Assembly: GCA_973895155.1 (NCBI GenBank)
Contig: OZ316894.1
Span: 8,456,234 to 8,520,233 of the forward strand
DNA: 64,000 nucleotides
Reading direction: 5' to 3'
From: Marsupella aquatica
Taxonomy: Eukaryota > Plantae > Marchantiophyta
The notes under the pieces: generated by a model
What the model saw: the letters and a program-made list of their open reading frames with translations, nothing else
What the model was told of the DNA's origin: nothing
Databases searched by the model: none
Made by a program: the position numbers and the translations under genes
In this document: positions 7,675-38,751 of the stretch, in pieces
How the letters are laid out: every line of letters begins with the position of its first letter
How positions within the stretch are numbered: position 1 is the stretch's first letter

Positions 7675-7683
7675 GCTGACTAT

Positions 7684-10822: not shown

Positions 10823-10857
10823 AACACAGTGACGGACCAAACGAGAAGTGTGACCAC
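10823..10857 (+). repeat. Left TIR of element A
   Basis: AACACAGTGACGGACCAAACGAGAAGTGTGACCAC, preceded by CCTC. Confidence 0.9.
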
Positions 10858-11168
10858 ACTTCTCATTTTGCCCACGGCGAAAAAAGTTTCTAAGGCAAAA
10901 AAGTCTTGGATATAGAATTAGTATTCCCCCTAAAAACTAGTTTTTCGGTTTCAAAAAATGGGAAAAATCAAAGTGAATATGAAGATGGGATACGGCATAT
11001 CCCATTTCGGATCCAACCGCGGAATTCCCCCCCAAAAAAACGAACGCAGTAAAAGTGCCAATATTGTTTTACCCATTAAGAATATTCTCAAACGATTCTT
11101 CTCAACGGTAACATTTAACTGACTGCGCTACAACTGCAGTCAAATACTAACCACGGTCAGGGAGAAAA

Positions 11169-11180
11169 CTATAAATAGGA
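11169..11180 (+). promoter_or_regulatory. TATA box of cargo unit 1
   Basis: CTATAAATAGGA followed by a pyrimidine-rich leader and donor AG|GTGAGA at ~11261; same layout at ~13390. Confidence 0.55.
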
Positions 11181-11289
11181 GATCCACGCTTGAAAATTTT
11201 CCGCTCATTTTTTCTCGCTCTGTATCCTCTTCCTCTCGACGAATGCCCACCATCTAACAGGTGAGAATCTTCATGCAAATGGCAAGGAC

Positions 11290-11945
11290 GAATCCTGAAT
11301 GGGATACAGCGTATCTCGTTTGGGATTCAACCTTCAAATGTCCAGTTTTTGTTTTTGTTTAGTTGAAAAAGGAGGTTGGATGCAAAGTGGGATACGGGGT
11401 ATCCCATATCGCATCCAACCTCCGAATATGAAGTATCTTGGCCTCCAAATGTCAAAACCTCAACGTTGAATGCGAAATGGGATACGGCGTATCCCGTTTG
11501 AGATTCACCCTTCAAATGTCCAGTTTTTGTTTCTCTTCAGTGAAAAAAGGAGGTTGGATGCAAAGTGGGATACGGGGTATCCCATATCGCATCCAACCTC
11601 CGAATATGAAGTATCTTAGCCTCCAAATGTCAAAACCTCAACATTGGATGCAAAATGGGATACGGCGTATCCCGTTTGGGATTCACCCTTCAAATGTCAA
11701 GTTTTTGTTTCTCTTCAATGAAAAAAGGATGTTGGATGCGAAGTGGGATACGGGGTATCCCATATCGCATCCAACCTCCGAATAATAAGTATCTTAGTCT
11801 CCAAATGTTAAAACCTCAATGTTGAATGCGAAATGGGATACGGCATATCCCGTTTGGGATTCAACCTTCAAATTTCCAGATTTGGTTTCTCTTTAGCTAA
11901 AAAAGGAGGTTGGATGCAAAGTGGGATACGGGGTATCCCATGTGG
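11290..11945. repeat. Tandem array of palindromes, 178-bp unit (90+88)
   Basis: GGGATAC-N3-(G/A)TATCCC cores at ~11301, 11389, 11479, 11567, 11657, 11745, 11835, 11923. Confidence 0.93.
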
Positions 11946-12102
11946 TATCTCCCTAGAGTTTTCTTGGCATGGGAAAAATCTTATGGATTGCTGATTGTTT
12001 CGTAGGCAAAGTTCAACTAAACACGCACTGAAGCTCTTGCTGCCTTTCAGTGACTCAAGCTTTTGCTTTCCTGGAAAAATGACATTTTCTCTTGTGAGTC
12101 TA

Positions 12103-12429
12103 ATGGCGGTCCAGAATCAAAACCGTGAGAAACGTGCTCGTCAATTGTATAAGCGATTAGTTGCACTCAAAGTTCTCCGTTTTGGATTAGGAGTGCTATG
12201 GACGGGAGGCGTGGATCCACATGATAGTTTGAATCCACTCCGAATAGAGTTTTGTGAAAAAAATGAAGACGGAGTTCCAATTCGGTCGAGGATATGTTTG
12301 AGTGGTTGTCTGCACTCTGTTAATTCTTCTTGTAATTATTGTCATGATGCCCGAAACAAATATCATCGATTAGCATATTTGTGTTGTCGGATTTGGAACC
12401 AAGATCCTTGGGTTAACTTATTGCGTTGA
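12103..12429 (+). CDS. Small Cys/His-rich cargo protein of unknown function
   Basis: Open frame after a TAG acceptor at ~12005; CLSGCLH..CNYCH..HRLAYLCC cluster. Confidence 0.4.
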   Translation: MAVQNQNREKRARQLYKRLVALKVLRFGLGVLWTGGVDPHDSLNPLRIEFCEKNEDGVPIRSRICLSGCLHSVNSSCNYCHDARNKYHRLAYLCCRIWNQDPWVNLLR

Positions 12430-12608
12430 ATCTTCTTGATTAGTGTGTAAGTGTTAGGTGAACGTTCTTGGTTCAAAAATTTTGTGAATATATTTTTCTT
12501 TTGATCAAAGAAATAAAATCAGTTTTTCCATCACTATTTTGTAGGTTGCTGAGAAAGTGCTCACCATCTCATTTATTACTCCAGGTATCCACTGTCTCTT
12601 ATTTTGGA

Positions 12609-13148
12609 ATGGCCGTCATTGAGAACCCTGTCTTTACAAGGTTAGCGATGTCATTCGACAAAGAGAAGAAACAAATTCAACAGAAAAGTGGCCAAAGGGA
12701 ATCCAGATTGCTTTTGGATGGACTTCCTGATGAGATTGTTGAAATGTTCATTTGGCCCATTTTGAAAGTTTGTTGTATAGAGGATGAATTTGATTCCTCC
12801 AAGAACCAAGCTGATGAAAGATTGATGCGATTAAAAACAATGGTGTGGCTTGGATGCACCTCCAAGAAATGGAACCAACTCGTAATTTGTACACGAGTCT
12901 GGGGTATTCTTAGACTAGCAAGAAGCCAGTTTGAGGAAGTAAATGAAATGCTAACAAGCATTCCCAATGGAAAATCCCTTCAGAATGTTCATATTGAAGC
13001 TTTTGTTAGGATGGAAACACCGAATCTTCCTCCAATCGATTTCTTAGGTTTATTTTCAAGGTCTGACCTAAATCGATTTCAAGAAGACTGGCACAATCTT
13101 GAGAAAGATGAGCAAGCAAGGCTCTTGGAAATGTATGGGGAAGCTTAG
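12609..13148 (+). CDS. F-box-like cargo protein
   Basis: LDGLPDEIVEMFIWPIL ... LGCTSKKWNQLV resembles the F-box consensus (L..LP.EI...I ... CK.W..L) with an insert. Confidence 0.55.
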   Translation: MAVIENPVFTRLAMSFDKEKKQIQQKSGQRESRLLLDGLPDEIVEMFIWPILKVCCIEDEFDSSKNQADERLMRLKTMVWLGCTSKKWNQLVICTRVWGILRLARSQFEEVNEMLTSIPNGKSLQNVHIEAFVRMETPNLPPIDFLGLFSRSDLNRFQEDWHNLEKDEQARLLEMYGEA

Positions 13149-13559
13149 AGCTTTATTTTGTGGCACAATTCCGGATGAATAAAGAGTTTTGTGATTCTAC
13201 CCTTACATCAACCCCATTCGCTAAGCGTAAAATCTATTTGGTTTAATCCAAGGACGTGGGGATATGCCTAATCTAAATCTAGTCAGAAACAAAGTCCTAT
13301 CAAGCAAAAAAAGTATAAATAGACCTCCAGACTCCAACCCTCCACTTTTGGATACACCTTATCGCTTGTGTATACGAAGGTGATAAAGTATAAATAGGAG
13401 TGCCTGGTCAGAAAGTGCACGCTCATTTCTTTTCCTTCTCAATTTTGTTTGCCTCCGCATTTTTCTCGGGCCGCAACATCTCTATAGCTTTTCATATTTG
13501 CTCGAATCAAAACAAAAACAGGTAAAACCTTAAGAAACTCTCCCCTCCTTGGCGTACTT

Positions 13560-14290
13560 CATTGTTGAATCCTGAGTGGGATACGCCGTATCCTCCTTTG
13601 CATTCAACTCTATTCTTTGCCCTTTTGTTCGAAGAATAGAACTTTTCAATGTTGAATACAAGATGGGATACCGCATATCCCATGTCGCATCCAACACCCT
13701 CTTTTTAGTATTCCATCGGAACCTCCTTGCTGTTTGTTGACTTTGAATACGAAATGGGATACCGCGTATCCCATTTCGGATTCAACTACATCTCTTTGGT
13801 CTTTTATTGTAGAGTACTAGAAATTCCTGATGTTTAGGGTTTAGCGCCTTTGCGGAGGATCATTGCACAAGGAGCCGCATTGGATGATGTTGGATACAAA
13901 CCGGGATACCCGTATCCCATTTCGCATTCAACTCCCTATTTTTTGTTGTTTGCATCAGACTAGGCAATTGTTGATGTTGGATGCGAAGTGGGATACCTCG
14001 TATCCCATTTCGCATTCAACTCCCTATTTTGCGTTCTTTGCATCGGACTCTGCAGTTGTTGATTTCGGATGCGAAGTGGGATACCTCGTATCCCATTTCG
14101 CATTCAATTCCCTATTTTTTGTGTTTTGTATCAGACTCGAGGCAATTGTTGATGTTGGATGCGATGTGGGATACCGCGTATCCCATTTCGCATTTAACTC
14201 CCTATTTTTTGTTCTTTGCATCAGACTCTCGGTAGTTGTTGATTTTGGATGCGAAGTGGGATACCGCGTATCCAATCTTGCATTCAACTA
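13560..14290. repeat. Array of palindromes (~87-91 bp spacing) in a probable 5' UTR intron
   Basis: Cores at ~13578, 13665, 13756, 13903, 13990, 14078, 14168, 14258. TATA at ~13390, donor at ~13522, acceptor TTTTACAG at ~14333. Confidence 0.9.
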
Positions 14291-14337
14291 CTTTTGTATG
14301 TTTACGCCTTGGTTTTGTGTCAATATTTTACAGGAAC

Positions 14338-14934
14338 ATGTTGAACAAATCAAAGTCGTCTGCTTCGACCAAATCTTCATGGACGTCTATCGTCGATGAG
14401 ATTTGGAAGAAGGACCTTTACACCGAGGAGAAACTCGTGAGGAATAGGTGGTACTTCAGGGATGCCCGGGCGATGGATATTCACAGAGCCTATGACGGTC
14501 TAGCGATGTGGTTGGTTATAGTTAAGGGTAAAGACCATTGCCATTATGGATTAGTCGTGGACACTGCGGAGGCAGATATCACCGACGCAAAAACCAAACA
14601 GTTGAAGAAGATTCCAATATACCTTTGCATTCTTCCGAACAATGACTTCATTGTAGTTGTCCTCAACTACGAGAAACTCGATCGGGTCTCGATGAACACA
14701 TTTCCTGATGACCCGATTTGCAAGCTAATTTTGGAAGTGTCAGAGATTGATGACTTTTCTTATTGGTGTTTGAAATTTGTCTTAAAGTCTTGGAGGGTTG
14801 TTGAGGATTTTACCAAGGTAGCATATAGGTCCGTCGTTGGAGCCGACTTTGGCGTCAAAGAGCGTTGTCCGGGTGACCGTGTTTTCTGGCAAGAGCATGT
14901 TGGCTCTTTTGAAGTTAACCTTGCATGCTCATAA
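14338..14934 (+). CDS. Cargo protein of unknown function (~198 aa)
   Basis: ATG just after the acceptor; uninterrupted non-repetitive frame MLNKSKSS... Confidence 0.55.
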   Translation: MLNKSKSSASTKSSWTSIVDEIWKKDLYTEEKLVRNRWYFRDARAMDIHRAYDGLAMWLVIVKGKDHCHYGLVVDTAEADITDAKTKQLKKIPIYLCILPNNDFIVVVLNYEKLDRVSMNTFPDDPICKLILEVSEIDDFSYWCLKFVLKSWRVVEDFTKVAYRSVVGADFGVKERCPGDRVFWQEHVGSFEVNLACS

Positions 14935-14937
14935 GTT

Positions 14938-15144
14938 CTACACTAAAATTAAAATGATAATTCTAGTAACAAGGGTAGTGGGTATTAAGAAAGGTTCAGG
15001 TGAAACTAAAATACTGTTAAACCCTACTTCACCATACTTGCGGACCAACACATCACGAAAATTAGTTTTCTTACGACATATGATCCTAATATCTCCAAGA
15101 GAAAATGAAACAGGAATATCATCCGGACTCCTATTCAGATCCAT
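14938..15144 (-). CDS. Small protein B (68 aa), homologous to 38541-38750
   Basis: PVSFSLGDIR...RKYGE.G...S.EPFL conserved with the element B copy despite DNA divergence. Confidence 0.8.
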   Translation of the reverse strand: MDLNRSPDDIPVSFSLGDIRIICRKKTNFRDVLVRKYGEVGFNSILVSPEPFLIPTTLVTRIIILILV

Positions 15145-15148
15145 GACT

Positions 15149-15364
15149 TCAATAAAGGACAAAGATAATGCACTCTAACTCCTCTCGGTACGACATCACT
15201 TGGTATATTATTGGCTCGTTAGAAACCATAACAACAGTTGCAAATTGAGCTCCAAAATGATAGGTTAGATGTTGCCTCATAGATGGTTTGTCTAAAAGAT
15301 GGACTCTAATCAAAAACGGATTACGAAGGGGAAGATCAGGGATAACTCTCTCTCTTGGATTCAT
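15149..15364 (-). CDS. Small protein A (71 aa), homologous to 38752-38985
   Basis: LPL.NPFLIR.H.L.K..M.QH.T.HFG..FAT.V..S.EPI.Y...C.IF.LY conserved with the element B copy. Confidence 0.8.
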   Translation of the reverse strand: MNPRERVIPDLPLRNPFLIRVHLLDKPSMRQHLTYHFGAQFATVVMVSNEPIIYQVMSYREELECIIFVLY

Positions 15365-15684
15365 GATGGCTCTCCTATTCCTTTGCTATCCGGGCCAAAG
15401 GACGCCCCACCCCTATATTCCCCAAAAAACCTTATTCCCTAAGGTCCCATCTATAAGTCTACCACTCATTCCTTTGCTATCCGGGCCAAAGGACGCCCCA
15501 CTACTATGTTCAAGGCACAAAAGAGCTTCACAACCTTGAATGATAAACACTGCGGAATGAGGAAAGAGTGTCACTCACCACTTTATTTATAGTGCACACC
15601 AAGAGGGCATGGATCAAGCCCAAGCACTTGGATGAAGGCCAAGTGGCAAACATCAAATACCTAAGAGTGTGCTAGTACTGTTCA

Positions 15685-15958
15685 TAGTTGGTGAAATTAC
15701 TTTTAGTAGGTGGAACTACCATGCATTGGTGGAACTACTGTGCGTTGGTGGAACTATTGTGCGTTGGTGGACCTATTGTGCGTTGGTGGACCTATTATGC
15801 GTTAGTGGACCTACTATGCGTTGGTGGTTCTACTATGCGTTGGTGGACCTATTATGCGTTAGTGGACCTACTGTGCGTTGGTAGAACTATTGTGCGTTGG
15901 TAGAACTACTCATATACATTGGTAGAACTACTCATATGAATTGGTGGAACTACTGTAT
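15685..15958. repeat. 19-20 bp minisatellite (GTTGGTGGA[A/C]CTA[C/T]TGTGC)
   Basis: About 13 visible tandem copies. Confidence 0.9.
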
Positions 15959-16141
15959 TCCGTTAATATAGCTAAAGAAGTTAATAAAGTCTAAATTTAA
16001 TAATCTAATTACTAAACTACTTATATAATCTATAACATATTAAAACAAACAATTTTTTTATAACTTAAGAGAAAATCACGACAGCGTCCTCTAAAGTTGA
16101 AAGTGACGAATCCTATCGATCCGGCTTCAAAGTCATGGGAG

Positions 16142-18743
16142 ATGTCTGGAACACCCTCGATAAAGGAGAAATCTGCCACAGTTTCTTTTAAGGAACCGGC
16201 AAAAAGGAAGCTTGCAGATCAACTCTCCGGGGAAGGTCCTAAAGCAGCGGTGTCAGGCGAAGCTGCTGGCAAGAAGAAACTGGATCGACGTAACATCCAG
16301 AAGCGAGCACCATCTGCACCCGAAAGTGTTGTCTCATCTTTGGTCCCAACAATTTCACAAACACCGTCTTAGATTCCTTCAACTTTGTCAGGTGGGCCTT
16401 CTCTATCATCTAGGGGTGCTGTGAAAGAAAAGAAAAACAATTCAACAGATATCACCACAGCTTTGCAGCGGGAAGAGACACTTGTGGTTCGTGAAGAAGT
16501 GTCTCAGTTGATGGAGACCAAGAGAGTTCAGAAGACAACTGTTATTCTGAAAACAACTAACCTGCTTCTTGTTGATGATTTTGACGACAAGAACTAAATG
16601 TTGGTTCGAACAGTAGATCGGTTGCATGTAGAGAACATCAAGACTTTGATGAAAATGAATCCAATAAATTTCACCACGCCATTTGTCTTGTTTGTGATCC
16701 CCAAAGATTGCCCGACAGTGACAGACTGGGACCCAGAAAAGGCAACGAGCTGGAGATATCGAGTGATTGGAGGTAATCACGGTGCTCGGGCTAAGAGAGA
16801 ATTGTATCAGGCTTATGGGAGAGAGATCTTCAATGAACTCCAAGCTTGGGTGTATGCTGGTCTCACAAGGGAGGACATTCAGAAACTTAGCATCCAACAT
16901 AATATTGATCAGGAGTACAAGAAAAAAATGAATAACATTGATCAAATCCGAACAATGCATAAGATTTTCCTTGCCAGAGGTATGGCAAAAACCAAGGAGA
17001 CTAGAGAAGCGTGTGCGATGGAGGTTTGCCTCGACGGGTTTTTTCTGGGGGACGCCACAAGCCTAAGGAAGCATGAACCTCTCTTCCAAATTGCGTTTAG
17101 GTTGGGTAAGGTCTGGGAACTCCAAGACCAGATCTTTGAGATGTGGAACAAGTTGGAGATCAAAGGGCAGAATAAGCAGAAGTCACCGATCAAGAAACTG
17201 AAGAAAAAAGGGAAAGCACAGTCGATTCCAAAAGCTTTGAATAAGCTTGTAGGGGGCCTTACCCTGACACCTTGGAGAGCAATCGAGGGAATTGAACACG
17301 ACCGATTTTTGGAGTCCCTTCTTCTACGAGTGAAGGACCGGATGATCTCTTTGGAGCAGATGGCAAAAGAAGCCGAGAGTTACAAGAAACTTGTGAAAAT
17401 CAACAAGCTTTTTGTTCAGTTATCAGGGCAACCAGACTGGGCGACTTGCAAACAAATGTTTCCGAAAGAAACAGAATCTGCCGAGCTTGAAAGATGGAGT
17501 GGGAAGTTGTCCGATGTGGTATGTTCTCCCCTTCCATTGATTGGACTTTTCTCGGATTCACTTGTGTTTATTTGACGTTTGTGATATTTCAATGAGGTTT
17601 TTGCTTGGTCAAATGCGAAGTGGGATACGGCGTATCCCATCTCGGATTCACTTGTGTTTATTTGACGTTTGTGATGTTTCAATGAGGTTTTTGCTTGGTC
17701 GAATGCGAAGTGGGATACGGCGTATCCCATCTCGGATTCACTTGTGTTTATTTGACGTTTGTGATGTTTCAATGAGGTTTTTGCTTGATCGAATACGAAG
17801 TGGGATACGCAGTATCCCATCTCGGATTCACTTATGTTTATTTGACGTTGGTGATGTTTGAATGGGGTTTTTGCTTGGTTGAATGCAAAGTGGGATACGG
17901 GGTATCCCATGTCGCATTCGTCGTCCAGATTTGATTGTTTGAATGCCCAAATGGTTCTCCCCATTGTCTTTTCTCTGGATTCTTTTAACAAGTTTGCGTT
18001 TGCAGTTGAAAGCTTTTTTGAAGAAGAAGAACAAGGATGCAATTGGTGCCGATGCGGTTGAGAAGCCTTCGGAGGAGCTGACTTTGAGTGTTATTCCCAC
18101 GGAGTTTAAGAATTATGTTCAAGAAGCGATTGAGAACTACAACCGTCGTCATGGGATTGAAACGGTTGAAGCGGAGTTGAGTGACCATCGATGGAAAAAC
18201 GCTGATGGAAATTTCATCAAATATACATTGCATTGTGGAGATGTCAGGGCGCTGGATAAGTTTGTAGAGAAAAGGAATTACACACTTGCAATTGCAGACA
18301 TTCCCTATGGATTCAATGCGCCTGGCTCTGAAAATGATGAGCTCCCATTTTCAGAGAGTGATATTGTAGATATGGTGAAGTGTTTTGCCAAGGTGACAAG
18401 TTCAAAGATATGGAGGTTTGTTGTGATTCACTCTTTGCAGCAAACTTGGTCTATGATGAATGCCTTGGGAAAAACTTGTAATGCAGGTGTAGAGGCTGGA
18501 ATTTGGGAGAAGCCAAATGTACATGCTCATCCTTCGGGGAATCGATTGGCTTGGGCTTTTGAAAACTGGTCAATCGGATATTATCACGAGAGTGGTATTA
18601 GGACCAGAGACATGTACAATTTTGAACATGATGAGAAAAGGGTAAACATCATAAAAGTCCCTTGTGTTACAAAGAAATGTGTAACACCATTGGGGGAAAT
18701 AGTGAACCCTTACCAGAAGCCGATAGCTCTAGCAGATTGGTTC
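16142..18743 (+). pseudogene. ParB/Srx-like domain fused to a beta-class N6A/N4C DNA methyltransferase (2 exons; two in-frame stops; 3' end lost to a Gypsy insertion)
   Basis: Exon 1 (16142-17518): VRTVDRLHVENIK..M ... YRVIGGNHGARA, ParB-like. A GT-AG intron at 17519-18005 joins the exons in phase 0. Exon 2: LHCGDV..L..., LAIADIPYG (motif IV), IWEKPN, NPYQKPIAL. Confidence 0.78.
17551..17915. repeat. 4 x 90-bp tandem repeat carrying the palindrome, inside the ParB-MTase intron
   Basis: Units start CTCGGATTCAC at 17551, 17641, 17731, 17821. Confidence 0.95.
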
Positions 18744-18857
18744 TGTGATGCCTAGCCAGGAATCACTCGGCCAGTTAAGTGGGTAAAGCAGGAGTGCACC
18801 CTAGAAACACCTTAGTATAGGGACAAACAAGGGAAATATAAACAATTAGGGGCGACT

Positions 18858-21800
18858 ATGGAACCCGGGCCGAGGCCGGAGGTAAGGACGCTGGGGGTGA
18901 AAATAAGATTAGGGTTAGGGCGCGCTAAGCGTTGGCGACTAGGAAGGATCAACGGGAGGAAGGACCGGAAGAGGAGAGGGGTAAGGAGCGCTTGCAGGGA
19001 ATGGTGGCTCATTTGCGAGCACGAACTAGGCAGACGACTACGGGAGGCCAACTACTGTCAACTGCTTAGGCAAGCACTCGGGGAGAGAGTAGATACCGAC
19101 GATGGACCTAAGGAGGGTATGAGCAACGTCAATCAAGCGGCACATTTCTGGGGATGCCTGTTCGAACGGGCAACTGAGTACATCAAGACTTACGGGGACG
19201 AAGAATCAGAAAGGGCAGCTCGAGAACGGCAGGAGCTCGCTCGATTGTGGGAGCTGCAGAAGACGGCTTTCTTAGGAGGCGAACTCATCAAGGCCGAGTT
19301 CTTGTGGACTCCTACTCCCAATCAGCTCGACGATCTTCTGTTTTGCGAAGATAGAGTCGTCGGCATCCGAGAAGCCATCAAACGCTGCAACAACATACAC
19401 TGGGAGTTGAAGGGTAGCACGGAGGGGTGGACAAAGGCAACCGTGCTAGGAGAGACATCCACGGGAACCAAAATGAAGAGGAAGGGAGCCGTCAACGATG
19501 AAACCACCCCGGCAAAAAGAACGAGGTCGGCGGCACCAAAGAAGCCAGCCGAGCAGCAGAGCAGGAGGCAAGGAGAAGCTGAAAAGGAGGAGGACAATCC
19601 CATCAATGCCATTCCAACCAGGGATGACACCTGGAAAGGCTGGGCGGCAACCCTACCAGAGGAGGTGCAACTACATTTTGCACGGGAGGAGAATGCATGC
19701 TTTACGGCCATGCAGACCAAGAAGTACCAAGGCTTCATGGCCGGATCCGGCTTAGAGGCCTTTGTAAGATTACCATGGCTGAAGCCGGAGGTGCCGGATT
19801 CAGACCTATTAGAATTCGTGGGGTCATGGGAACCCAAGACCAATTCCACGAGGATATATGGGAAGGATTTCTATCTTACTCCCAAGGTGATTGCCAAAGT
19901 GTTTGGCTTGCCGATAGGCAATAAGACCAAAGTTGATACCAGGAAGACCCTGCCTGACAAGGAGTTCCGGTCGTTCCCCGGGCCATCAACGAAGAATGGC
20001 TTCTTCCGGAACACCTGCACCAACCCGCACATAGGAGAGATGATCGACTTCTTGCAAGTGACCATGCATTGTAACTTGCCGAGGGCAGAGATCGGCAAGG
20101 CACAGGTCTATCTGGCAGAGAGGCCAGACCTAAGTCGGGACTAAAACGGGTACCTCCTCAACCAATTGAAGAAGATCTTAAAGGAGGAGCAGCAGGTAAT
20201 CGGCCTAGGGAGCGTGTCGCGGCTTGGCTATCACATGCCGCTGTTGTGCCGGTATGCCAAAGGTCAGACCTTTGCCCCAGTACTTCCCCTGCAGGTATGG
20301 GCACCCGAGGAAGCTCCAGCACCGAGGCCGGTAGCAGAGAAGCCTCAACCACCTGTTAGCCCTACGATTGAGCAGGTGTTTAGGCCAAGGAAGGAAGACT
20401 TGCCGATGCAGCAACCAAGCATGCAGAATTTGCTGAAAATGCTGGAGAAGGAAAAGACGGCACTGGCACCAGCTTTGGCAGCGGCACCAATACAGGACAC
20501 TGCCCCAGAGGTCAACCTAAGCAGACTTAGAAGGGAAAACCCCTTTACCAGAAATAAGGAGAGAATCAGGCCAGAATCCAAGCCGGGTGTTCGAACGTAC
20601 GTGGGAGTCTCAAGCTTTGAATCTGAGGCAGAATTGCCTGAAGCTCCTACCGGCGAAGAGGAGAGGGAGAAGCCGGAAGTCCAAGAGGTGGAGGCAGTGG
20701 AGGACTGCAGCCATGATAACTCCGGCTATGGGTCGGACCATCACGTTCCAGGAGTAAGGACCTGTGGCCGGTTTATCCCCACACTTCCAAGGGTAGTTCG
20801 AGGGGACCCCAACTAGCAGAGTAGCCCCGAGTCTCCCCCACCAGATGTTGCTCTCCCGAGCTTTGACGGCATAAAGCAGACGGCACAGGAATTTCAGGAG
20901 CGACTTAGGGAAGCAGAAAAGGCAGCCCTGGCTAGGGAAAAGGATTTGCCAGGAGGAGATTGGCCGGAGGACATCAGGCGGCTAGCCAAAAAAGGAAGCA
21001 AACCTCTAGCCACGATTGAAGAGATCCGCAAGACGGCTTGGGAGCAGAGGCCGCGATGGGCGATGCCGATCACTTCTACTTACTCCACCTACGCTAAGAA
21101 TAGAGCCATGGAGTATGGTGAGATATGTGGGGAACTTGCGCTCGGCATCTTTGGGGAGGAGTTGGAGGTAGGACCCTTTTTCCATAGGGAGCAGTTGGAG
21201 AAGCACCAATTAGAAGAAGCGGTGGCTTTAGAGAGAAGCAAGAAGGACGAGGTCATCCGGCGGCTTAGGAGGATGGAAGCCGAGATTGAAGATCTAAGGG
21301 CGGCCAAGAAAGCCCAAGATGAACTGCGGATTAAGCGGCATGAGCTGAACATCATGCAGGGGCAGTTGGACACCGCGCAGGCTGATAATCAGATTATCAA
21401 GGATAAACTGACTCAGACCCAGGGAGAATTGGCCGACGCAATCAAGGATAGGAAGAAATGGAAGAAGGAGCTGAGAGACGCAGAGGAGGCCCATATAGCA
21501 ATCAACAACCAGGTCACGGTGGAGACTCAGAGAAGGGCGAGGGCGCTGAAGGAAGAGCTCGAGGTCATCCGCAGAGCCCTTGAGCAGAAGGAGGCCGAGT
21601 TAGGGAAATCCTATCAAGGGATTGTTGCGCTACAGCAGGAGCTTGCGTCCCTGACGGCCAGCTTCAAGGCCGACCTGCGGGAGAAGGACGCCCAGTTCGA
21701 CCAGACTTATGCCAAGATGAATAACATGGAGTCTGAGGTTGTAGCGGAGCTCGACAAGGAGCTAAGAGCAACCCAGGAGGAGAGGGCTACCACCAAGAAG

Positions 21801-22199: not shown

Positions 22200-23409
22200 A
22201 CACGACAATAGATCCCGCTATCACCAAAGGTGGGGATGGCGCGGCCCAAGCCGAACTACTCAGTAATGAGGCCGGTATCCCAGATCCATCTCTTGAGCAG
22301 GCCGGGGAGGCCGTGGCCGAAGCTGAGGCCGTAGCCGAGAATGATTTCTGAGCCGAGGCCGAAGCCGAGGGTGGGCCCAGTCAGGCCGATGAAAAGTTGA
22401 CTCGGTCAGAGGCAGGAATCTGTCAGAGGACGGACCAACAACAGTGGTTGCGGAGGGAGCGTTGGGGGCGCCCATTGAGGATCCACCACCGGTGTCGTGA
22501 CGGTGCAAGGGCGTCGTTCCTTTTAGGAAGGGCGGACGTGGAGGGAGGAGGCGTGAGTGGGCAGAGCGGGCTCAAATCTCTAAGTTTAGGATTAGGATCA
22601 GGACCAGGAGGCGGCCCTGACACTTAGCTTAGTGGGATTGCGGTTCCACTGGTAAGAGCAACACTTGTACTTCTACCTCGCTGTACATAGGTAGATCCAG
22701 TTAGGTAGATTAGGCTTACGCTGCAAAGGATTAGGCGGATCCACTACCAGGATAAGTACCTGGGCAGCGGGGAGCTCAGGGCCTCTTCTTTAGCAAGTTT
22801 TTAGTTGCACCAGCCGGGCTGGGATCAAGTAGTAAGAGAAGCTCTCGGTTAGTCATACAGTGACCTTTGTGTATATTCATGTTTCCTCATGCCTAAGAGC
22901 TGAATAGAGTTGGCCTCACGGCTTAGTTCGCAGAGCTTGTGTATGAGATGTACTGTTTGTATGGCAAGTGCATGGTATGACTCAGTCAGAAGGAGTCATT
23001 TTGCTAATTGTGTGTCGCATTAACTTGTGTGAAGAGTGCCCACATCAACCAATAGAGGAAGGAAAGTAAGCAGGGGAGTGAGAGTTGGATGTGTCGAGCT
23101 GAGAGAGGTCTTAGCGGCTTAACCAAGCCTATTGGGGATCATTATGGCGGCGGAATCCAAACATACCTAACAAGACGGAGGGGAAGACAAGGGAAGGCCT
23201 AGATTAGGCCGGCTACGTATCTCATGACCCGATGAAGGATCTGTCCAGTATATGTGTGTAAAATGTTAATAGTAGTAGTAGAAGGAGGTTAGCAGCGTCC
23301 CATGCCGCTAAGCCGCGGAAACGGCCTCGCCAAACGCGAAACCTGCGGGAATCAGCTTGCGCTGGGGGGGTTTCTTGGGTTTAGGGAGCCATGGGACGCA
23401 CCACATTTT

Positions 23410-23428
23410 TGGCACTAGATGGAGGGGG
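23410..23428 (+). other. Primer-binding site
   Basis: TGGCACTAGATGGAGGGGG 4 nt after ...CACA and ~50 nt before the gag ATG. Confidence 0.7.
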
Positions 23429-23474
23429 CATTTCTTAAGCCGTGAGATATGAAGTTAGAAAGGAAGCATAGGTA

Positions 23475-25760
23475 ATGACTGACCTTACGCCGAGGGAAGA
23501 AAGAGTGATTCAACGGGAGAGAGCTCGACTACAGCAGCTCGCCGGGTGGCATGATACACAGCGACTGAGAGGGGCAGAAAGAGCTGGTAGCTCCGTAGCT
23601 AGAAGTGGCGTTGAAGAAGACATACCAGAAGAAGAGTCGATAGGAAGAAACGAGTACCCAACCGACATGGGGGAACCAGAGGCACGGCCAGACGAGAGGC
23701 CAGGGACCAGACTGAGCCAACGGTCACGCATTCATTACAAGGCATTTCATGGGAGAGGAGATGAGGATCCGGACGAATGGTTGGATGATTTCGAGGGAAC
23801 CGCTGCAGCAAATGGAGAATCGGCCATCAAGATGCAGATTCTTCCCGGCCTGTTCAAGGGTGAGGCTAGGCCTTGGTACAGAGCATTGGATGTGGAAGAT
23901 CAAGCCATCTGGGATATCTTCAAAACACTATTTGTTAAGGAGTTTCGACCCATTGGAACTTCAGAACTAGCAGTGCTGAAATTGGGACGACTTCGGTTCA
24001 AGGAGAACAAATCCTTTAGGAAGTTCTTGCAACGCTTTCAGAAACTGGTAAGACGTACAAAGACCAATGCATCTGAAGGTATGCAACTTCAATGGTTGGT
24101 GAATGCTTTGCCATAGAAGATGAGTTTTGCAATTAGGAAGGAGAACCCGGAGACCTTGGCCGAGGCAATTAAGGATATTCAATTATACATTAATGCAGAT
24201 ATCACAAGCCGGAAGAAACAGCTTAAGTCTGAGAGTTCCTCATCAGAGGAAGGATCACCCCATAAGAAAAAAGATAAGAAGAAGAAACATTCTAAGAAGT
24301 CAAGAAGTGATAACTCAAGCTCGGATAGTGGAAGTAGCAAGAGTGAGTCATCTTCTAGTTCTGAAGAAGAAAAAACTAGGAAAAGAAAGGCCAGAAGGAG
24401 AGGGAAGATGAAAGTGAAGCTGGAGGCTAAGCCACCAGATAACATCGTGGCCCTTACCGAGCAACTTAAGGCTATAATTGCAGAGGTAAAGCCGAAGAAG
24501 AAGGTAGTACAGGAGGATAGCTCTGTATGGTGTGTCTTATGTTATAAAACCGGACACCATAAAGATGCGTGTCCTAAGCTCAATACTAGTCATGTTCGGC
24601 ATGTGGCCGAGATCAGACCATGTCAGGGAGAAGTAGAGTACTTTCTAGGAGATGCCGCTGATAGTGTTTTCGGCATCAGTGAGACTGGAGCACGAGACCT
24701 ATCCAACAGACCTGCATCTCTGTGGTCAGGATTAAGGAACAACCCGGGAGAGATGTATCCTCGAATTATTCAGGACCCGTCGGTACCTCCTAGGCCGAAT
24801 GTGCAAAGATTTGTGGCATGCTATAATTGTGGTCAACCTGGCCATTTTGCTAGAGAATGCCCGAATGCACGCAAACAAGGTGATGGACAACCAGCTCAGC
24901 TATGTATGGGATGTAGACAGGAGGGTCACATGCTAGGACAATGTCCTACTTGGTTGGTAGGCCTGGCCGCAAATCATAAGCTCTTGCCAGTTAAGGTCTT
25001 ACCGCCAGATATTACCCCCGGAGGAGTTCAAATCAACCACATCGAACTAGGATGGCAAGAGGATGCCGAGGCAGAGTTCGTACCATTTGATGATGAGGCC
25101 GAAGCCCTATCAACCTTCTCAGAAGAGGATTTAGATCATGATTGCTACCGGGTCTCTACTCGATCTACCAGAAGGAAGGAAAGGTGGGATGGGCTAGCCA
25201 AAAATAAAGGGAAGGTTAAGGAGGAAAAGATCGACTCTTCGTCAACATCAACGGAAGGAGAAGGAAGGGCTCCGGCAATACAGGTAAGCCATGAGCCCAC
25301 CAGTGAACCCAATCCTTCACAAGATAGCAACTTCAATCGAGATCATCCTAAGTTGTTCTACCCCTCTGTTACGGCTAGTGTTAAGGAACAACTGCGAGAA
25401 TTAGAAACCCTGGAGAGTACTGAAGCCATAGCCAAGGATATGAAACGAGCAAAAGCATTGTTTGCTTCGGAGGATCCAACAGCTGTGGGGACTAGCGTGA
25501 AAAAACAGGCCGAATCCAAGATAGAGACACCACTGGAGAAACCGATAGTTCCCTATGACCTGGCTAAAGATGTACTAGAATCTAGAGTCTCGGCAACAGT
25601 AGGTCAACTACTGAAAAATAGCCCGTACTTCCGGAAGCAATTAAGGAAGGCTATTCTCGGCAAGCCGAGATTACCCAAGGTAGCAACCAAATCCGACGTG
25701 CTGATGATAGAAGAAGATCAAGGAGCCCCAGCTTTACCATTAATGATTCAAGGAAGCTTT
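23475..25760 (+). pseudogene. Gypsy gag (one in-frame stop, truncated)
   Basis: FHGRGDEDPDEWLDDFE, FKGEARPWY and three CCHC knuckles; homologous to the gag at 7684-9311. Confidence 0.9.
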
Positions 25761-25799
25761 ACCATAACTTTTATTTAGTTCAATTATTAAACACTTTGG

Positions 25800-26024
25800 A
25801 CTAACTTTAAGATTCTTTCTCAAGTACCTCAACAACCAAACAATTCAGATTGTGGTCTTTTTGTTCTTCAAAATATGGACGAAATCAGAATTCAATGGCA
25901 TATTACACAATGCCTTGATGCACAGTCTTTATTTACCGAAAAATGGTACAACTCTAAAAGAGCATGTAACCTTAGAAAATTCATTCGAGATCAAATTCTA
26001 AAATTGATGCATGTACCTGTTTAA
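25800..26024 (+). pseudogene. ULP1/C48 SUMO-protease C-terminal remnant
   Basis: Manual translation (not in the ORF track): SQVPQQPNNSDCGLFVLQNM...KWY...NLRKFIRDQILKL*, the catalytic Q/C motif of peptidase C48. Confidence 0.8.
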
Positions 26025-26035
26025 GGACATCAATC

Positions 26036-28826
26036 TCAATCCTCTGAAGGTGAAGAACCTCGCTCTAATATAGCAGACTCTATAATCTTTTTAGTTTTTG
26101 CTGTTATTTGATTAGTACTTAAAAGCGCAAAGTTGTATGCATACACCGCTGTTGATGATAAAACTAGTTCATCTTGGAGAAGTCGATTAGATATATTATC
26201 TTTCTCTGGAAAATATTTCCCATCAATAGCAGACTCAGCACTTGCCTCAGTTGTGTACCATGTGATTTTGATTCTCTCAGGAATGTCTGCAGTTCTTGTC
26301 AAAATCTTTGACACCTTTGCCATCCAAAACAACTTGCCTTCTGGATCCTTGTGTGCCTCTACACATATCATGGACCACTTATTGTTAACTTCCATATCTC
26401 TGAAATCTCCAAATTTAGCTTGCTTTCGTCGAGGTCCGGAGTACATAATTCTCTATGGTCCAGCAACTTTGTCAACCAAAGTTGGATCAACACCTTCTTC
26501 AACAAGTTCATATTTCACCCTTCGAAGTGTTGCACCTTGATTTTATTGCGGCCAAACCCACTCAAATAACCACTCACCTTCCTCTAGGTGGTTTTTGATA
26601 ATATCTTTTTGTTTCTAAAAAAAACTCATCCACCAAAGTTTGTCTTCATTGTCAAAGTAATTGAAAGCTTCCTGAATAGCTTTTTCATATTTCACCAGAG
26701 TAGTTAACGCACCATCTGTATTGGAAGAATCATGGACATCATCCCTCTCAACACCTTTTGCTGACTTTAGTGACATTTGTGCAGCAACCCACATTCTTGA
26801 AGTTGGAATGTAATTAACAAACGTCACTGCATCTCCCCAATCCTGGGTCGTGGAAAGATGTTTCCCGTGAAATGTTGTCTGTTCGTTTCCATCCTCCATG
26901 ACTCGTTTGAATCTGAATTGCCTTTGAAAAGTTATGAGAGATCTCTCAAGACTCTACCTGAGACTCCCTTCTCATTTGGCTGGTCGGTTTCATTGACAAA
27001 TTTTCAAAAATTGGCTACTTCATCCACAAATATGATCAAAGCTTCAGGGGAATATGCTCATCGAATAATATCCTCAAGAGTCTCCAAGCGAAATGCTTTG
27101 TGCTTGTTTAACCTAGATGAAAATTTACTAAACATCTGATCTATCTGGTCATGTGTATGACCGACCAACAAGAAACCCACTTTAATCTTGTCAAAAATCT
27201 TCAAATCTACTAACATGTGAAGATAAGCCATCAAGAATTTATTCTTGTTTTCCCTAGTGGTATTATCTAATTGAAGATATAACACTCTTGGTAATGTCTC
27301 ATCCCATGTATTCAATACATTTTGAATAACATGTATTAATGGTCAAGTTTGCATCATTATGGATATTGGGATATGTCAAAAATACTTTTGCTGCAAGGTT
27401 CCTGTTGAAGATGAGACAACCTACAACATGTATTGGAATGAAATATTTTTCATCCATATTCTTCGGACAACGAAGAAAATGTGGTAGCTCTGTTTTCTTT
27501 TGATCCATACCATCTATACAAATATCCAAATACTTGTTGGGTTCATCATAGCATTTTTTACGATGGCTAACTTCATCCTTTCCAATGATTGTACTTTTCG
27601 ATGCTCCATAAGGGCATTGATGTACTTTCTTGAAATGATACAATAACAATGAATCAAAAATCAATAACTAAGGATAAACTTTGACAAATATTGAAGTACA
27701 TCATGTCATCAAATTAAAGTTGAAGGTTGTAGTTAGTGGTGCTTACTTTTATCCTCTTCAATTGTTGCTTTGTCCCGAAGAGCCTTGAATTCAGTACAAG
27801 GACCACAAGTAGAAAATCGACTCCTTTTAGGTATTCGTACATTTGGAAACTTTTTTTTTCCAAACACGCAAAAAAATAAGAATATGTAACTTGTTGTTCT
27901 TCTCGCAACATTGTTTCAGCTTCAAAGATTCCATGTATCTCTTGCTTTGTCCAATTGTCTGGCAAGTGATGAATCTCTTTATGGGGAAGACTATCCATAT
28001 TTTTTTGGAAAAAATATTTCAACCATTCCACCAGGTTTAAAAATGAAGGTGAGTCTTCCTTACAAAAGGTATCTTGTTCAATCCTTGTAAACATGTTTGC
28101 ATGGATTGTTGTCAATCTATTATTACCTAAAGAATATAGTTTCTTGAATCCTCCTCTACATATAGGTTGTCCATTTACACTATATCCACGAGAAGTACTA
28201 CTACTGTTCATGATACAACCTCGTAGCAAAATATTTTTCTGCAAGTGTTTAAGACCAAAATAATACTTGCATTGTTTTGAGCATTCCTCTAGACCCAGAG
28301 ACCTCAAACAAAACTTGTCACAACAGGGATACTTAAAAATATCTTTAATTTTGCATTTTCTTAGATTTGCAATGGTAAGTCTATCTTTTCTAATCATCTG
28401 ATCTCTGATTTTTTTGCTGGGTCTTGTCACCTCTACTCTATCCTAAATAGTGTCGGGAGAACTTACCCCCTCACTATTTTCTAGTGAATTAGAATTCAAA
28501 ACAAAAAGATCTTCTGTAGAGTTGTTTCCACTCTCCACATTTTCTATAACTGTTTCATGAACAATCTCACATCCCAGGATCTCTTCCACAACATTTGAGA
28601 TTATAGCAGTCTCTCTGTCATTTGCAGCCACCTCTGATCTCTCTTCAGAGTCTTCTGAAAATGTAATAGGTGTTCGGAGATTTCTAGTTTGAAATCTTCT
28701 AATGATATTCACATCTTCAGTCGCAGTACCGCCCACTTGTCTCTGAGACTGTAATCCCAGCCTAGGTGATTCTTCTCGACTTGAGGGCTCATCTTGACCA
28801 TTGAATAATCTTTGGACAAGTTTCAA
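26036..28826 (-). pseudogene. Sola-like (DUF7869-type) DDD transposase of element A, fragmented
   Basis: CCDKFCL, ICRGGF; CIDGMDQKKT (D1), LYLQLDNTTRENKN (D2), FLLVGHTHDQIDQMFS (D3). Confidence 0.82.
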
Positions 28827-29029
28827 TTTAGCATGTACCCTTGAATTTTTGGGCCCTCTCTCCGGCAGCTCACTTCACAACAATCTCCGAGGAATTTTTT
28901 GGACACTAGATATCTTCCCTCTTCGTTCTGCACTTGCGGTCCAATGGAAGATCCAAAAACCTCACACTGCATCCTCGCCAAAGGGCTTCGAAGCCCAATG
29001 TTGTTAGTTTGACCATTCGGTGAAATAAC

Positions 29030-29410
29030 AGATGGGAATACCGGTTGGGATTCATGGATCCCAACTCGTATTTGTCCTTCGGGACTTCGAAGTGAAAACT
29101 TTCCCACTTGCTATTCTGCGTCATGACTTGGCAATTTTCCATTGCGCAATACAAACTTGGATCCACGTATCCCATTTCGCATTCCACCATCAAAACTCGG
29201 GTTGGAAGTCCGCAAGACCGGTGACTCGGGCACAGGATTCTGCAAAATACCACGAGGGAATACTAAGTGGGATCCATGGATCCCACTTCGTATTTGACCC
29301 ATGGAATTTGGTATTGAAGGAGACAAAATAGGCAATTCGCGTTCACCGTTTCTCAACATTCAAGTAGGGAATACCAAGTGGGATCCCACTTGGTATTCGA
29401 CCCACCATAT
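29030..29410. repeat. Variant palindrome array (GGGATCCATGGATCCC-type, ~111-bp spacing)
   Basis: Cores at ~29047, 29158, 29269, 29380; more copies at ~30274, 30345, 30434. Confidence 0.8.
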
Positions 29411-29471
29411 TTGGCTCCGAGGCTGCCCCTCCCTGCAATTCCGGCACATTTGGACTCCTCATTCGCTCAAA

Positions 29472-29912
29472 CTATGATTGAACACTGGACACAGCTATCT
29501 TCACTCCCGGAGAATGAGACATTGGAAAAACCAACGGAGATCTTCGGGCGGGCCTACATGGTAACGTTGTTCTTGGCATTAAAAACCGGGGCCTTCGTCT
29601 TCGAAGATCTGTCGGGGTTCGCGGAGAACCAGGTATCTCTGTCGTAGGAACTACATTAGGCTTCTTTACAAGTAGACGTCGTTTAAGAGGTTTACTTGGA
29701 GAGACATAGTATGAAATCGGAGCACCCACAACACTCCTACAAGACTCTAAATCGGACTCTGATTTCTCAGATTCTGAGGAAAATGAAATCTCTGGCACTA
29801 CTCTCTGTGAGGCTGGTAATTCATTCATCAAACGAGATGGAATAAATTTTTGAACAACATCTGGCGAAGATGCATCTGAACTGTAAATTGATTCATCAAT
29901 TGAAGACGCCAT
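29472..29912 (-). CDS. Ser-rich ORF, probable first coding exon of the transposase unit
   Basis: ATG downstream of a minus-strand CTATAAAAG (~30064-30072); exon end uncertain. Confidence 0.45.
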   Translation of the reverse strand: MASSIDESIYSSDASSPDVVQKFIPSRLMNELPASQRVVPEISFSSESEKSESDLESCRSVVGAPISYYVSPSKPLKRRLLVKKPNVVPTTEIPGSPRTPTDLRRRRPRFLMPRTTLPCRPARRSPLVFPMSHSPGVKIAVSSVQS

Positions 29913-31000
29913 AGAGAATCAAACAAGGGTTGTATAGGAGTACGTATTCCTATCCAACAGAGATACTTCAGATTACAGTATTCTATGAAAACAACTACTC
30001 AATAGTGAACAAACCTCAAAGTAATCACGAGAAATGAAGATGAAAAACAAATGCGAGCTCTTCCTTTTATAGTTTTCGGGGGCATTGTACATGTGGCATT
30101 CCCTGATTGGTCCGTACGAGGGTTTTTTCAAGTGAGAGTCTATCTTTTCCAGGACTGCTGAAATTTAAATTGTAGATTATTGAGGAAGTCGCCGTGGATC
30201 CGAGTTGGTCTTCAAACTGGAATATCAAGGTATGCGATGCAAAACTTCAAAATGTAGAGGTTGAATACTAGATGGGATCCATGGATCCCATTTGGTATTC
30301 ATCCTCCTGTTTTCCCGATGAGTTTTTGGACTTGCGAAAAAAATGGGATCCATGGATCTCAGTTGGTATTCATGTCGAAAGATCTCCTGATACAAAGTTG
30401 CAGGTGGAAAACATTGAGGTTGAATACGAGAGTGGATACTTGGATCCTGTCTCGTATTCATCATGCGCTATGGGCTAAAAAAATTCCGAACATGTCGTCG
30501 GGTTAACTTAACTAACTGTGTGGGTCGACTATAGTCTGCGGTTAGTTTTTTGCAGTTTTCCGGTTTACCGCAGTTAAAAATTCAAATATTTTTAACCCGA
30601 GGTTAAATGGAAGCATCAAGAGAATGATTTGGTGTGGTTTTCGTCCACGTTCAATAGTTGAATCCGAAATGGGATACGCTGTATCCCAATTTTAGTTTGC
30701 CATTTTGAAGGCAAAAATGAAATCTTGTGTTTTCTTCATTTTGTTTGACTCTCGGATTTAGCTTTTAGAGGATCACGTGAAAAGCATTGTTTTTCTAGGT
30801 TTTGGAATTTGCCCTTTTTTTAGATGAAGTGTATCAGAATTCTGGATTGTAACAATTCTTTGTTTTTGTGTCGACAGTATCTCGATTTGAAATCCGATGT
30901 TGGATGCGATTTTGGATTCATCCTCAAAATAGCATTTTCGATCTTAATTTTAGTGTTTTTTTGCCATTTTTTGCGAAATTGAAAACACACTTCTCGTTTG

Positions 31001-31035
31001 GTGGTCATACTTCTCATTTGGTCCGTCATTGTGTT
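31001..31035 (-). repeat. Right TIR of element A
   Basis: Reverse complement AACACAATGACGGACCAAATGAGAAGTATGACCAC, followed by CCTC. Confidence 0.9.
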
Positions 31036-38750: not shown

Positions 38751-38751
38751 C

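Follow-up and report, generated by a model that had tools for sequence, protein, structure and literature searches.

The 64-kb window of plant DNA analysed here contains a 20.2-kb transposon, element A, which extends between terminal inverted repeats (TIRs) from 10823 to 31035 and is flanked at both ends by a 4-bp target duplication, CCTC. A related element, element B, lies nearby. Element A carries many copies of the palindrome GGGATAC-N3-GTATCCC with a 3-base centre (N3 sites) and some variants with a 2-base centre (N2 sites). Its features are the following.

10823..10857, + strand: left TIR, preceded by CCTC, with 32 of 35 bases identical to the right TIR
10987..11003, no strand: isolated N3 palindrome, lying 164 bp inside the left end and upstream of the first TATA-like box
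11261..12005, + strand: predicted 5'-UTR intron of cargo gene 1, with array 1 (eight palindromes at 11301-11939, alternating 88/90-bp units)
12079..13148, + strand: cargo gene 1, open reading frames with broken frames; an F-box-like stretch recognised by eye only
13522..14333, + strand: predicted 5'-UTR intron of the ParB-methyltransferase gene, with array 2 (eight palindromes at 13578-14274, including 13903)
14338..17518, + strand: first coding exon of the ParB-methyltransferase gene, broken here by an insertion and two stops; ParB-like part at 16598-17518
14861..16082, no strand: nested insertion, missing from some related copies; element B contains a relative
17519..18005, + strand: predicted phase-0 coding intron, with array 3 (four palindromes at 17622-17908, 90-bp period)
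18006..18755, + strand: amino-methyltransferase exon with a DIPY motif, truncated here ahead of the SAM-binding motif
18756..25760, + strand: nested fragment of an LTR retrotransposon (gag, zinc knuckle); element A DNA is missing there
25791..26021, + strand: remnant of an Ulp1-type protease gene (PF02902, E 1.5e-5)
26039..29915 (limits approximate), - strand: DUF7869 transposase gene (PF25273, E 1.4e-35), frameshifted in this copy
29047..29284, no strand: three N2-variant palindromes with a 111-bp period within the transposase 5' region, in a likely (predicted) intron
30274..30448, no strand: three N2 variants, located upstream of the TATA-like box of the transposase gene
30671..30687, no strand: isolated N3 palindrome, lying about 350 bp inside the right end
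31001..31035, - strand: right TIR, 35 bp, followed by CCTC

Both boundaries are confirmed by the mixed flanks of related contigs, of which 29 from run X6 stop at the left TIR end (agreement 0.41) and 11 from run X1 plus 32 from run X6 at the right one. DUF7869, which was named in no paper found by our literature search, may belong to a Sola-clade transposase. Two Sola features, the 4-bp target duplication (described for this superfamily in the available text of PMC10741241) and terminal inverted repeats, are present in element A. Element A is a broken copy of a many-copy plant transposon; this copy cannot supply the ParB-methyltransferase protein, which intact sister copies would. The joint 14860-16083 was seen in three of four runs of related contigs and the reading frames agree across it, and given this we dropped an annotation of 14338-14934 as a separate third gene.

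The palindrome is far too frequent for chance: in the 64-kb window, 15 exact N3 matches face 0.00 expected and 21 with at most two mismatches face 0.09 expected (100 shuffles). Together with a copy at 13903, whose centre has two bases, this bears out the original observation of about 22 copies, and single sites near each end were also found as described. Furthermore, 20 of the 22 lie inside the three predicted introns, in line with the claimed arrays between a GT donor and an AG acceptor; each array is bounded by GT and AG in a splice-like context, splicing being predicted, and the third intron is supported because homologues carry both flanking exons in one protein. The earlier list missed the six N2 variants near the transposase start (29047, 29158, 29269, 30274, 30345 and 30433), which bring the total to 28 sites and have mostly GGGATCC half-sites with outer arms as in the N3 sites. 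A collapsed fourth unit of the 29047-29284 array lies near 29380, and the full half-site at 29158 is present in most related contigs. That no copy lies outside the TIRs held for all 21 N3 sites in the window; one armless N2 match with two mismatches, at 42689, is at chance level (0.31 expected in 64 kb). The inverted repeat of about 45 bp proved to be partly idealised: arms are present, but the perfect version is a composite, and in the actual copies 336 of 441 arm positions are paired (19 of 21 in the best one). In metagenomes, the extended motif gave no match; in viral contigs, eight loci have the motif with one site each and no arrays, which we take as chance.

Identity between arrays is 1.00/0.93 for the cores, 0.71/0.65 for the arms and 0.28/0.34 for the spacers, which agrees with the claim that the palindrome is conserved while spacers differ. 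The spacers fall into seven types of 40-44 nt, with z no higher than 3.1 in 20 of the 21 pairwise alignments, and 16 of 17 intervals between neighbouring sites measure 87-91 bp. One could assume a neutral origin, in which a small fold-back sequence spread within the element and was amplified by slippage, as the array units are tandem repeats with 85-93% identity and their copy number differs among related contigs. However, the cores are near invariant between unrelated spacers, the period is kept and specific arm columns are kept symmetrically, and we regard such an origin as quite improbable. Even less credible, and in our view very improbable, is that the palindromes function at the RNA level, forming hairpins in spliced introns, as a small-RNA source or in splicing control. 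Their intronic location and the excess of G-T over A-C pairs on the sense strand of the arms (39 versus 25) would suit this idea, but arm pairing (321/440) equals that in shuffles (321.5), also when wobble is allowed (363 versus 363.1), and this lack of covariation argues against hairpins. Moreover, copies are also located upstream of promoters and near the element ends, and an Rfam search gave no match.

Our candidate for a protein reading these sites is the product of the ParB-methyltransferase gene, for which structure prediction suggests an N-terminal domain folded like ParB and a helical domain resembling the DNA-binding domains of ParB and KorB. The ParB-like part was modelled with pLDDT 87.6, and the best 17 Foldseek rows listed were all ParB-family chains (best E 1.3e-3, none reaching E 0.001; TM 0.57-0.58 by target for ParB 6t1f). 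With VIA, PadC gave a modest Z of 6.5 (rmsd 3.2, 80 aligned), the DNA-binding domain of KorB a Z of 4.6 (rmsd 3.9, with 109 aligned residues in the stretch 98-268 of the model) and the SopB and ParB DNA-binding domains Z 3.5-3.6, all below 8 and in a range that VIA calls common; a profile match to Spo0J 151-195 had E 1.2. The predicted recognition helix covers approximately residues 146-166 of the model. At the GxxR position the protein reads GGNH, and His occupies the column in 0.97 of the rows covering it (43-row alignment). In ParB the GxxR Arg is needed for nucleotide binding, according to the available text of 10.1101/2025.10.10.680097, and the family-wide GxxH therefore makes CTP-driven loading as on parS doubtful. 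In the atlas, the ParB part resembles fungal DUF3723 clusters (0.94, 164-169 shared features), which is a lead only, and the N-terminal part of the protein had no usable match there. A single protein query in metagenomes found no relative in 101 candidate stretches.

The methyltransferase exon itself had no Pfam match (46 ORFs scanned). By BLAST, it matches P0018 (E 7e-33) and P0020 (E 3e-29), both of which carry PF01555 (N6_N4_Mtase). Its catalytic motif IV position reads DIPY, that of homologues DFPY, DIPH, DMPY or DPPY, and the second residue is not the canonical Pro. The SAM-binding motif I is absent from this copy, which is cut at 18755; the pattern was matched in 6 of 40 long homologues, and two contigs of run X5 continue at 18743 with letters that we read by eye as the run-up to this motif. 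Among longer proteins, none of 640 candidates was a homologue of the exon, and the PDB sequence search returned only teneurin (E 0.046).

A possible footprint of such a protein was found in the CpG content, taken here as an indirect methylation proxy from one copy. With motifs and array spacers masked, CpG observed/expected is 0.81 (163/200.3) within 500 bp of the sites and 0.46 (49/106.8) beyond 800 bp (p 3e-4). In coding DNA only, the values are 0.88 near and 0.46 far, and for the mid-gene array alone the gradient has p 0.04. A shift control was borderline, as 9 of 236 shifts match the observed gradient. These values might simply reflect promoters, if the ParB-like protein bound its sites as a plain transcription regulator or transposition scaffold, acting in autorepression, end looping or copy-number control. 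In favour of this, KorB, a ParB relative among the fold matches, is a transcription regulator (10.1101/2025.10.10.680097, available in part), most sites lie close to where transcription is inferred to start, a separate class of N2 sites accompanies the transposase, and element B has no CpG gradient (near 0.45, 44/98.5; far 0.46, 93/203.9). However, more than 1 kb from the inferred starts CpG is still higher near palindromes than far from them (0.76 versus 0.47, p 0.007), and within 1 kb of these starts it is 0.51 where palindromes are distant. Hence, we judge the plain regulator unlikely.

We rather propose, giving this reading about even chances, that the palindromes are double-stranded DNA binding sites of the ParB-like methyltransferase predicted from the element itself. 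This protein would protect the promoters and introns of the element from CG methylation by the host. A probably family-specific, two-fold word is found close to either end, within three predicted introns and ahead of the transposase, and the predicted ParB-like and helical domains are similar to those of the palindrome readers ParB and KorB. One dimer would read the inner half-sites TGGGATAC, a second dimer may read an outer box, TTGRATNC, 12 bp further out, and the period of roughly 89 bp would space the bound complexes. Judged from the indirect footprint, binding or a nearby N6-adenine/N4-cytosine mark may hold off 5mC over approximately 500 bp, and CpG would be kept near the sites because of this. 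Since two of the arrays lie inside the protein's own gene, the loop would be self-sustaining and could act in trans on sister copies. The earlier idea of self-recognition sites in a self-marking or anti-silencing system, with this protein as candidate, is thus supported in part: conserved cores, arms without hairpin covariation, the predicted fold, the N6_N4_Mtase homology, the CpG kept near sites and the different palindrome of element B speak for it, whereas the missing CpG gradient in element B, the GxxH and the fact that in other systems a transposase alone can serve as sequence-specific activator speak against it.

This last point leads to another reader with the same anti-silencing outcome, namely the transposase, as for AtMu1, or cargo gene 1, as for VANC or TnpA. 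Cargo gene 1, the transposase or cargo lost in the deleted middle are possible readers too. The AtMu1c transposase alone and Spm TnpA bind clustered, family-specific motifs and hypomethylate CG in their own families (10.64898/2026.08.24.746577, available in part). The single sites close to the element ends would fit such a reader, and cargo gene 1 is uncharacterised, with no Pfam match and no homologue among 38 candidates. However, in that source the TnpA and AtMu1 sites are terminal and the readers transposase-derived, while the sites here lie mostly in internal introns; the TIRs of element A hold another repeated word, ACCAAACGAGAAGTGTG, distinct from the palindrome; and a two-fold site fits a ParB-type dimer. 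We therefore consider a different element protein rather unlikely.

Element B carries its own N3 palindrome, which differs from that of element A and does not overlap with it anywhere in the window. The 3-base centre is the same and the period differs (26-27 bp), which suits an element-specific reader. It also stands against the assumption that the sites work as intronic enhancers, either by attracting a host factor or by positioning nucleosomes, with 178 bp for two units; the conserved 87-91-bp period, A/T tracts in the array spacers and the first-intron location are consistent with this assumption, which we nevertheless regard as improbable.

A ParB-like transposon protein that binds and modifies its own element has already been proposed for algae, and element A would be a plant case. 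Sola1-1_Ec32 of Ectocarpus, a 21.5-kb Sola1 element, has a gene for a 1104-aa protein with ParB-like and N4C/N6A methyltransferase parts on the strand opposite the transposase, and its authors propose that the protein binds and modifies its own element (PMC12477816). This element is from a brown alga, and the main text, as far as available, names no target motif and lacks the word 'palindrom', whereas in element A, from a plant, the motif is defined, its arrays lie in predicted introns and CpG content shows a footprint. In the red alga Bostrychia, Plavaka elements PAG3/PAG2 of the EnSpm superfamily encode a ParB-like accessory protein beside tandem inverted-repeat arrays, and self-binding with modification was proposed as well; there, the ParB part is joined to a 2OG oxygenase, a distinct SET fusion provides the methylase, and the arrays adjoin the gene instead of lying in introns of several genes (10.1101/2025.02.11.637652). 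The same paper calls VANDAL the only transposon known to bind and modify itself, and a binding test was found in the available text of neither algal proposal (PMC12477816; 10.1101/2025.02.11.637652). The VANC protein recognises motifs within tandem repeats of introns and reduces CG methylation (PMC5735166). VANDAL elements share with element A a family-specific motif in intronic, intergenic or terminal tandem repeats, a motif that differs between related families, and a local loss of CG methylation, which for element A would be indicated by the indirect CpG footprint (PMC5735166; PMC10398659); such a motif in non-coding tandem repeats, different between elements A and B, is present here. In contrast, VANDAL belongs to Mutator, its motifs have 8-9 bp ('palindrom' is absent from the available text of PMC5735166), and VANC function is established by experiment, whereas that of the element A protein is predicted. 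The VANC domains DUF1985 and DUF287 were not among the 46 ORFs scanned, and element A has the 4-bp duplication and DUF7869. With ParB/parS and KorB, element A shares the predicted ParB-type fold, a putative helical DNA-binding domain and palindromic sites, and ParB-methyltransferase fusions occur in phages and bacteria (10.1101/2025.10.10.680097, available in part). It differs in its GxxH, in that no ParA was seen, in belonging to a eukaryotic transposon and in a 17-bp site with free centre and long arms. In the open-access articles and preprint main texts searched, no description of such a plant element was found.

With element A, the proposal can be put to a direct test in a plant, since the site is defined and comes in two classes, there is a candidate for its reader, and the zone of protection is predicted to span 500 bp. 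Should the proposal hold, it would add a bacterial-derived anti-silencing system, perhaps with a DNA mark other than 5mC, to plant genomes and provide a tool to shield transgenes from silencing. More tentatively, and with clear doubts, one may imagine that giant plant transposons defend themselves epigenetically with an operator system of bacterial style. In this picture, a reader derived from ParB, which GxxH would have released from control by CTP, would dock on phased four-box palindromes in its own introns and write N6-methyladenine/N4-methylcytosine that blocks host 5mC; each family would have a private palindrome with a matching recognition helix, and the 3-base and 2-base centre classes would tune cargo and transposase separately. 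If this joint reading were true, it would represent a second, independently evolved plant anti-silencing system and offer a programmable means, independent of CRISPR, of protecting DNA from silencing.

Regarding the protein of element B, BLAST of the element A methyltransferase exon against the element B ORF was not significant (E 0.09). A weak link of this protein to the ParB-methyltransferase family was found (E 9e-6, domains 0.0025 and 0.59). Its homologue P0152 gave a profile match with E 2.8e-35, which may owe much to low complexity and is given no weight here.

The word GGGATAC-N3-GTATCCC was found in 15 exact copies in the 64-kb window (0.00 expected by chance) and in 21 when up to two mismatches were allowed (0.09 expected). 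Together with a copy at 13903, which has a 2-base centre (N2), these near matches amount to exactly 22, where the original prediction had about 22. The core has no match in the window with a centre of 1, 4 or 5 bases, and eight with N2:

13903: N2 palindrome in element A, the inverted-repeat (TIR) element with a DUF7869 transposase; counted toward the original 22
29047, 29158, 29269, 30274, 30345, 30433: six N2 palindromes in element A, on the start side of its transposase
42689: N2 match outside element A, with 2 mismatches and without arms (the outer inverted repeat around the core), at chance level

The total in element A is 28 sites; the earlier inventory was right in its 22 copies and overlooked the six near the transposase start. 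Within the window, confinement to A holds for the N3 word, which is absent from the neighbouring second DUF7869 element, B, and the one outside match qualifies it for N2. The perfect 45-bp inverted repeat described earlier turned out to be a composite; in the actual copies the arms match each other at 336 of 441 positions. The transposase-side sites follow each other at intervals of 111, 111, 71 and 88 bp. At 29047-29400 they belong to a 111-bp repeat, equal to 37 codons, at whose fourth position, near 29380, there is a perfect 30-bp palindrome with collapsed centre; this repeat may lie in an intron or may be read in frame as part of the transposase N-terminus.

Element A spans 10823-31035; its 35-bp TIRs agree at 32 positions, and a CCTC duplication flanks it at either end. 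It belongs to a multi-copy family, because contigs of public sequencing runs stop at its left (29 of run X6) and right border (11 of X1 and 32 of X6) with mixed flanks, and contigs of each run examined, listed under three organisms, cover 29-30 of its 30 bins. The transposase gene lies on the minus strand and is frameshifted (DUF7869, E 1.4e-35); DUF7869 is a putative Sola transposase domain. A 4-bp target duplication, such as CCTC, is a Sola feature (PMC10741241, in part).

This copy of A is broken by two insertions, one at 14861-16082 and the other a fragment of an LTR retrotransposon (18756-25760), in whose place element DNA was also lost; its native sequence comprises 11,986 bases. A Ulp1 protease gene remnant remains at 25791-26021, hence intact copies likely carry further cargo in the missing middle. 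The first insertion is related to another at about 38465-40040 in B, and both contain short ORFs on the minus strand, which are 50-55% identical, as well as a TATA-like box and a tandem repeat of 19 bp (A) or 14 bp (B). Both appear to have entered at the target AGAGCGT and terminate in CACGAC, and they have no Pfam match. The target in B is a unit of its palindrome array, which the insertion splits, and in runs X2 and X3 the summed depth of the A insertion is several-fold above the rest of A. The pair possibly represents a site-specific mobile element.

Three arrays of sites lie in A, each in a predicted intron:

11301-11939: array 1
13578-14274: array 2
17622-17908: array 3

Between arrays, core identity is 1.00 and 0.93, compared with 0.71 and 0.65 for the arms, 0.47 for the centre and 0.28 and 0.34 for the spacers; cores are thus not as divergent as spacers, and the claim of a conserved core among differing spacers was borne out. 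The period is retained although the spacer sequence is not, because 16 of 17 intervals within the arrays measure 87-91 bp, whereas 20 of the 21 pairs among seven spacer types align at z <=3.1 (the remaining pair at 6.0; same-type spacers, as control, at about 10). Neutral repeats, weighed against these conserved cores, appear very improbable, and that the sites serve a host factor or nucleosome phasing is quite improbable as well.

When the two arms of each copy were folded together (42 arms), the inner box was TGGGATAC, with GATA invariant in 42/42, and 12 bp beyond it the outer box TTGRATNC retained its A, T and C in 41/42, 40/42 and 39/42 arms. Among the 20 distinct copies, an arm pairs with its own partner no more often than with arms taken from other copies (321/440 vs 321.5; with wobble, 363 vs 363.1). 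Each half-site hence keeps its own consensus, which is what a protein-binding site in duplex DNA, but not a hairpin, would show; RNA hairpins are extremely improbable, even if G-T pairs exceed A-C pairs (39 vs 25, among non-independent copies).

The ORF from 14338 and the ParB-like ORF form one gene, because contigs connect 14860 directly to 16083 in three of four runs and the flanking reading frames agree. Arrays 2 and 3, which hold 12 of the 22 original sites, therefore lie in predicted introns of this gene itself (13522-14333 and 17519-18005). The exon after array 3 matches N6_N4_Mtase-type proteins (E 7e-33), which supports the array-3 intron. The translation of 16598-17518 has 156 relatives at E <=0.001; an N6_N4_Mtase match was present in 10 of 36 scanned, one below the curated cut-off. 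Ten homologues were looked up, seven were named, and the six with an organism included Chara, Riccia and Ginkgo, which makes a plant the likely host of the element. By language-model similarity (0.94), the neighbours of this translation are fungal DUF3723 clusters. DUF3723 is an accessory gene of Starship elements, and our literature search found no text linking it with ParB.

The predicted fold of the ParB-like part (43 sequences, pLDDT 87.6) had only ParB-family chains among the best 17 listed Foldseek matches, none reaching E 0.001; VIA matched model residues 1-110 to PadC (Z 6.5) and 98-268 to the DNA-binding domain of KorB (Z 4.6), and all its matches stayed below Z 8. Residues 146-159, assigned by eye to the turn and the first part of the recognition helix, vary strongly (top residue 0.16-0.41), next to a scaffold that is conserved. 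This fits a changing specificity, though loops vary in any case. The catalytic motif is DIPY, and the SAM-binding motif is truncated away in the A copy. The phosphate motif reads GxxH in place of GxxR, and those ParB-fold proteins that were tested no longer bind nucleotide once the GxxR arginine is lost (10.1101/2025.10.10.680097, in part). That the same ParB-like reader acts as a plain regulator or scaffold is unlikely. A different element protein reading the sites is rather unlikely, even if TnpA and AtMu1 are others able to do such a job (10.64898/2026.08.24.746577, in part).

CpG o/e reflects past methylation indirectly and was read here from one copy of A. After motifs and array spacers had been masked, it is 0.87 within 300 bp of a site and then 0.71, 0.50, 0.48 and 0.46 with distance; GpC is 0.74-0.79 in all bins except the nearest (0.94). 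The near/far contrast (163/200.3 vs 49/106.8, p 3e-4) persists in coding DNA with approximate exon limits (68/77.1 vs 49/106.7, p 5e-4) and beyond 1 kb from three inferred start sites (53/69.5 vs 66/139.4, p 0.007). Under stricter controls the contrast is weaker: 9 of 236 circular shifts match or exceed it, and for the mid-gene array taken by itself the counts are 25/32.9 vs 23/52 (one-sided p 0.04).

The sites, their conservation, spacing and location, the CpG pattern and the homology are observed, whereas introns and fold are predictions and binding, protection and any methyl mark are inferences. The leading reading, to which we give about an even chance, is that the sites are docking places for A's ParB-like methyltransferase, which would keep nearby DNA free of CG methylation. 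The docked protein may write a methyl mark itself, and its own gene, other cargo and the transposase would stay expressible in sister copies. A family-private operator combined with a methyl-mark system that blocks 5mC seems doubtful. ParB-HTH fusions to adenine methylases occur in chlorophytes and chytrids (PMC4738411, in part); Marchantia possesses 4mC writers (10.1101/2021.02.12.428880, in part, with no mention of ParB), and some retrotransposons bring adenine methylases with them (10.64898/2026.05.21.726589, in part, with neither ParB nor Sola mentioned).

Element A resembles VANDAL/VANC in its proposed working without being a member; there, motifs lie in intron tandem repeats and differ between families (PMC5735166; PMC10398659; both in part). 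Its build matches Ectocarpus Sola1-1_Ec32 (PMC12477816, in part), and red-algal Plavaka has inverted-repeat arrays adjoining a ParB-like accessory gene (10.1101/2025.02.11.637652, in part). Self-binding is a proposal in the available parts of both these papers, and A's design is a variant of this kind already proposed in print. Our literature search, which left out most subscription journals and supplements, found no description of such a plant element.

Element B covers about 32-43.5 kb, its exact ends not having been located. A palindrome of its own, TCGCYC-N3-GRGCG, recurs in it at 13 positions (34145-40298; 0.02 expected) and nowhere inside A. These private motifs support element-specific docking; the lack of a CpG gradient in B (0.45 near vs 0.46 far) does not. 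B looks more decayed than A. Its large minus-strand gene bears a weak likeness to the ParB-methyltransferase family (E 9e-6; 40% over 45 residues), and P0152, a homologue of the product, has SGQH at the GGNH position (E 0.1). A 26-27-bp array of the B palindrome lies ahead of its transposase, and an ORF at 32775-33221 is NIF phosphatase-like (PF03031, E 7e-7).

Three LTR-retrotransposon pieces were seen (3765-9356, 18756-25760 and about 43490-46750), and in the last of them CpG o/e comes close to 0 between 45.5 and 46.5 kb. A repeat of about 100 bp with TATA-like boxes occupies 51640-53044, with another copy 1070 bp off. The ORF at 56502-57566, possibly a host gene exon, encodes a WRC domain (PF08879, E 7e-9) and is followed by an AT-only tract at 58-59 kb (GC 0.07).
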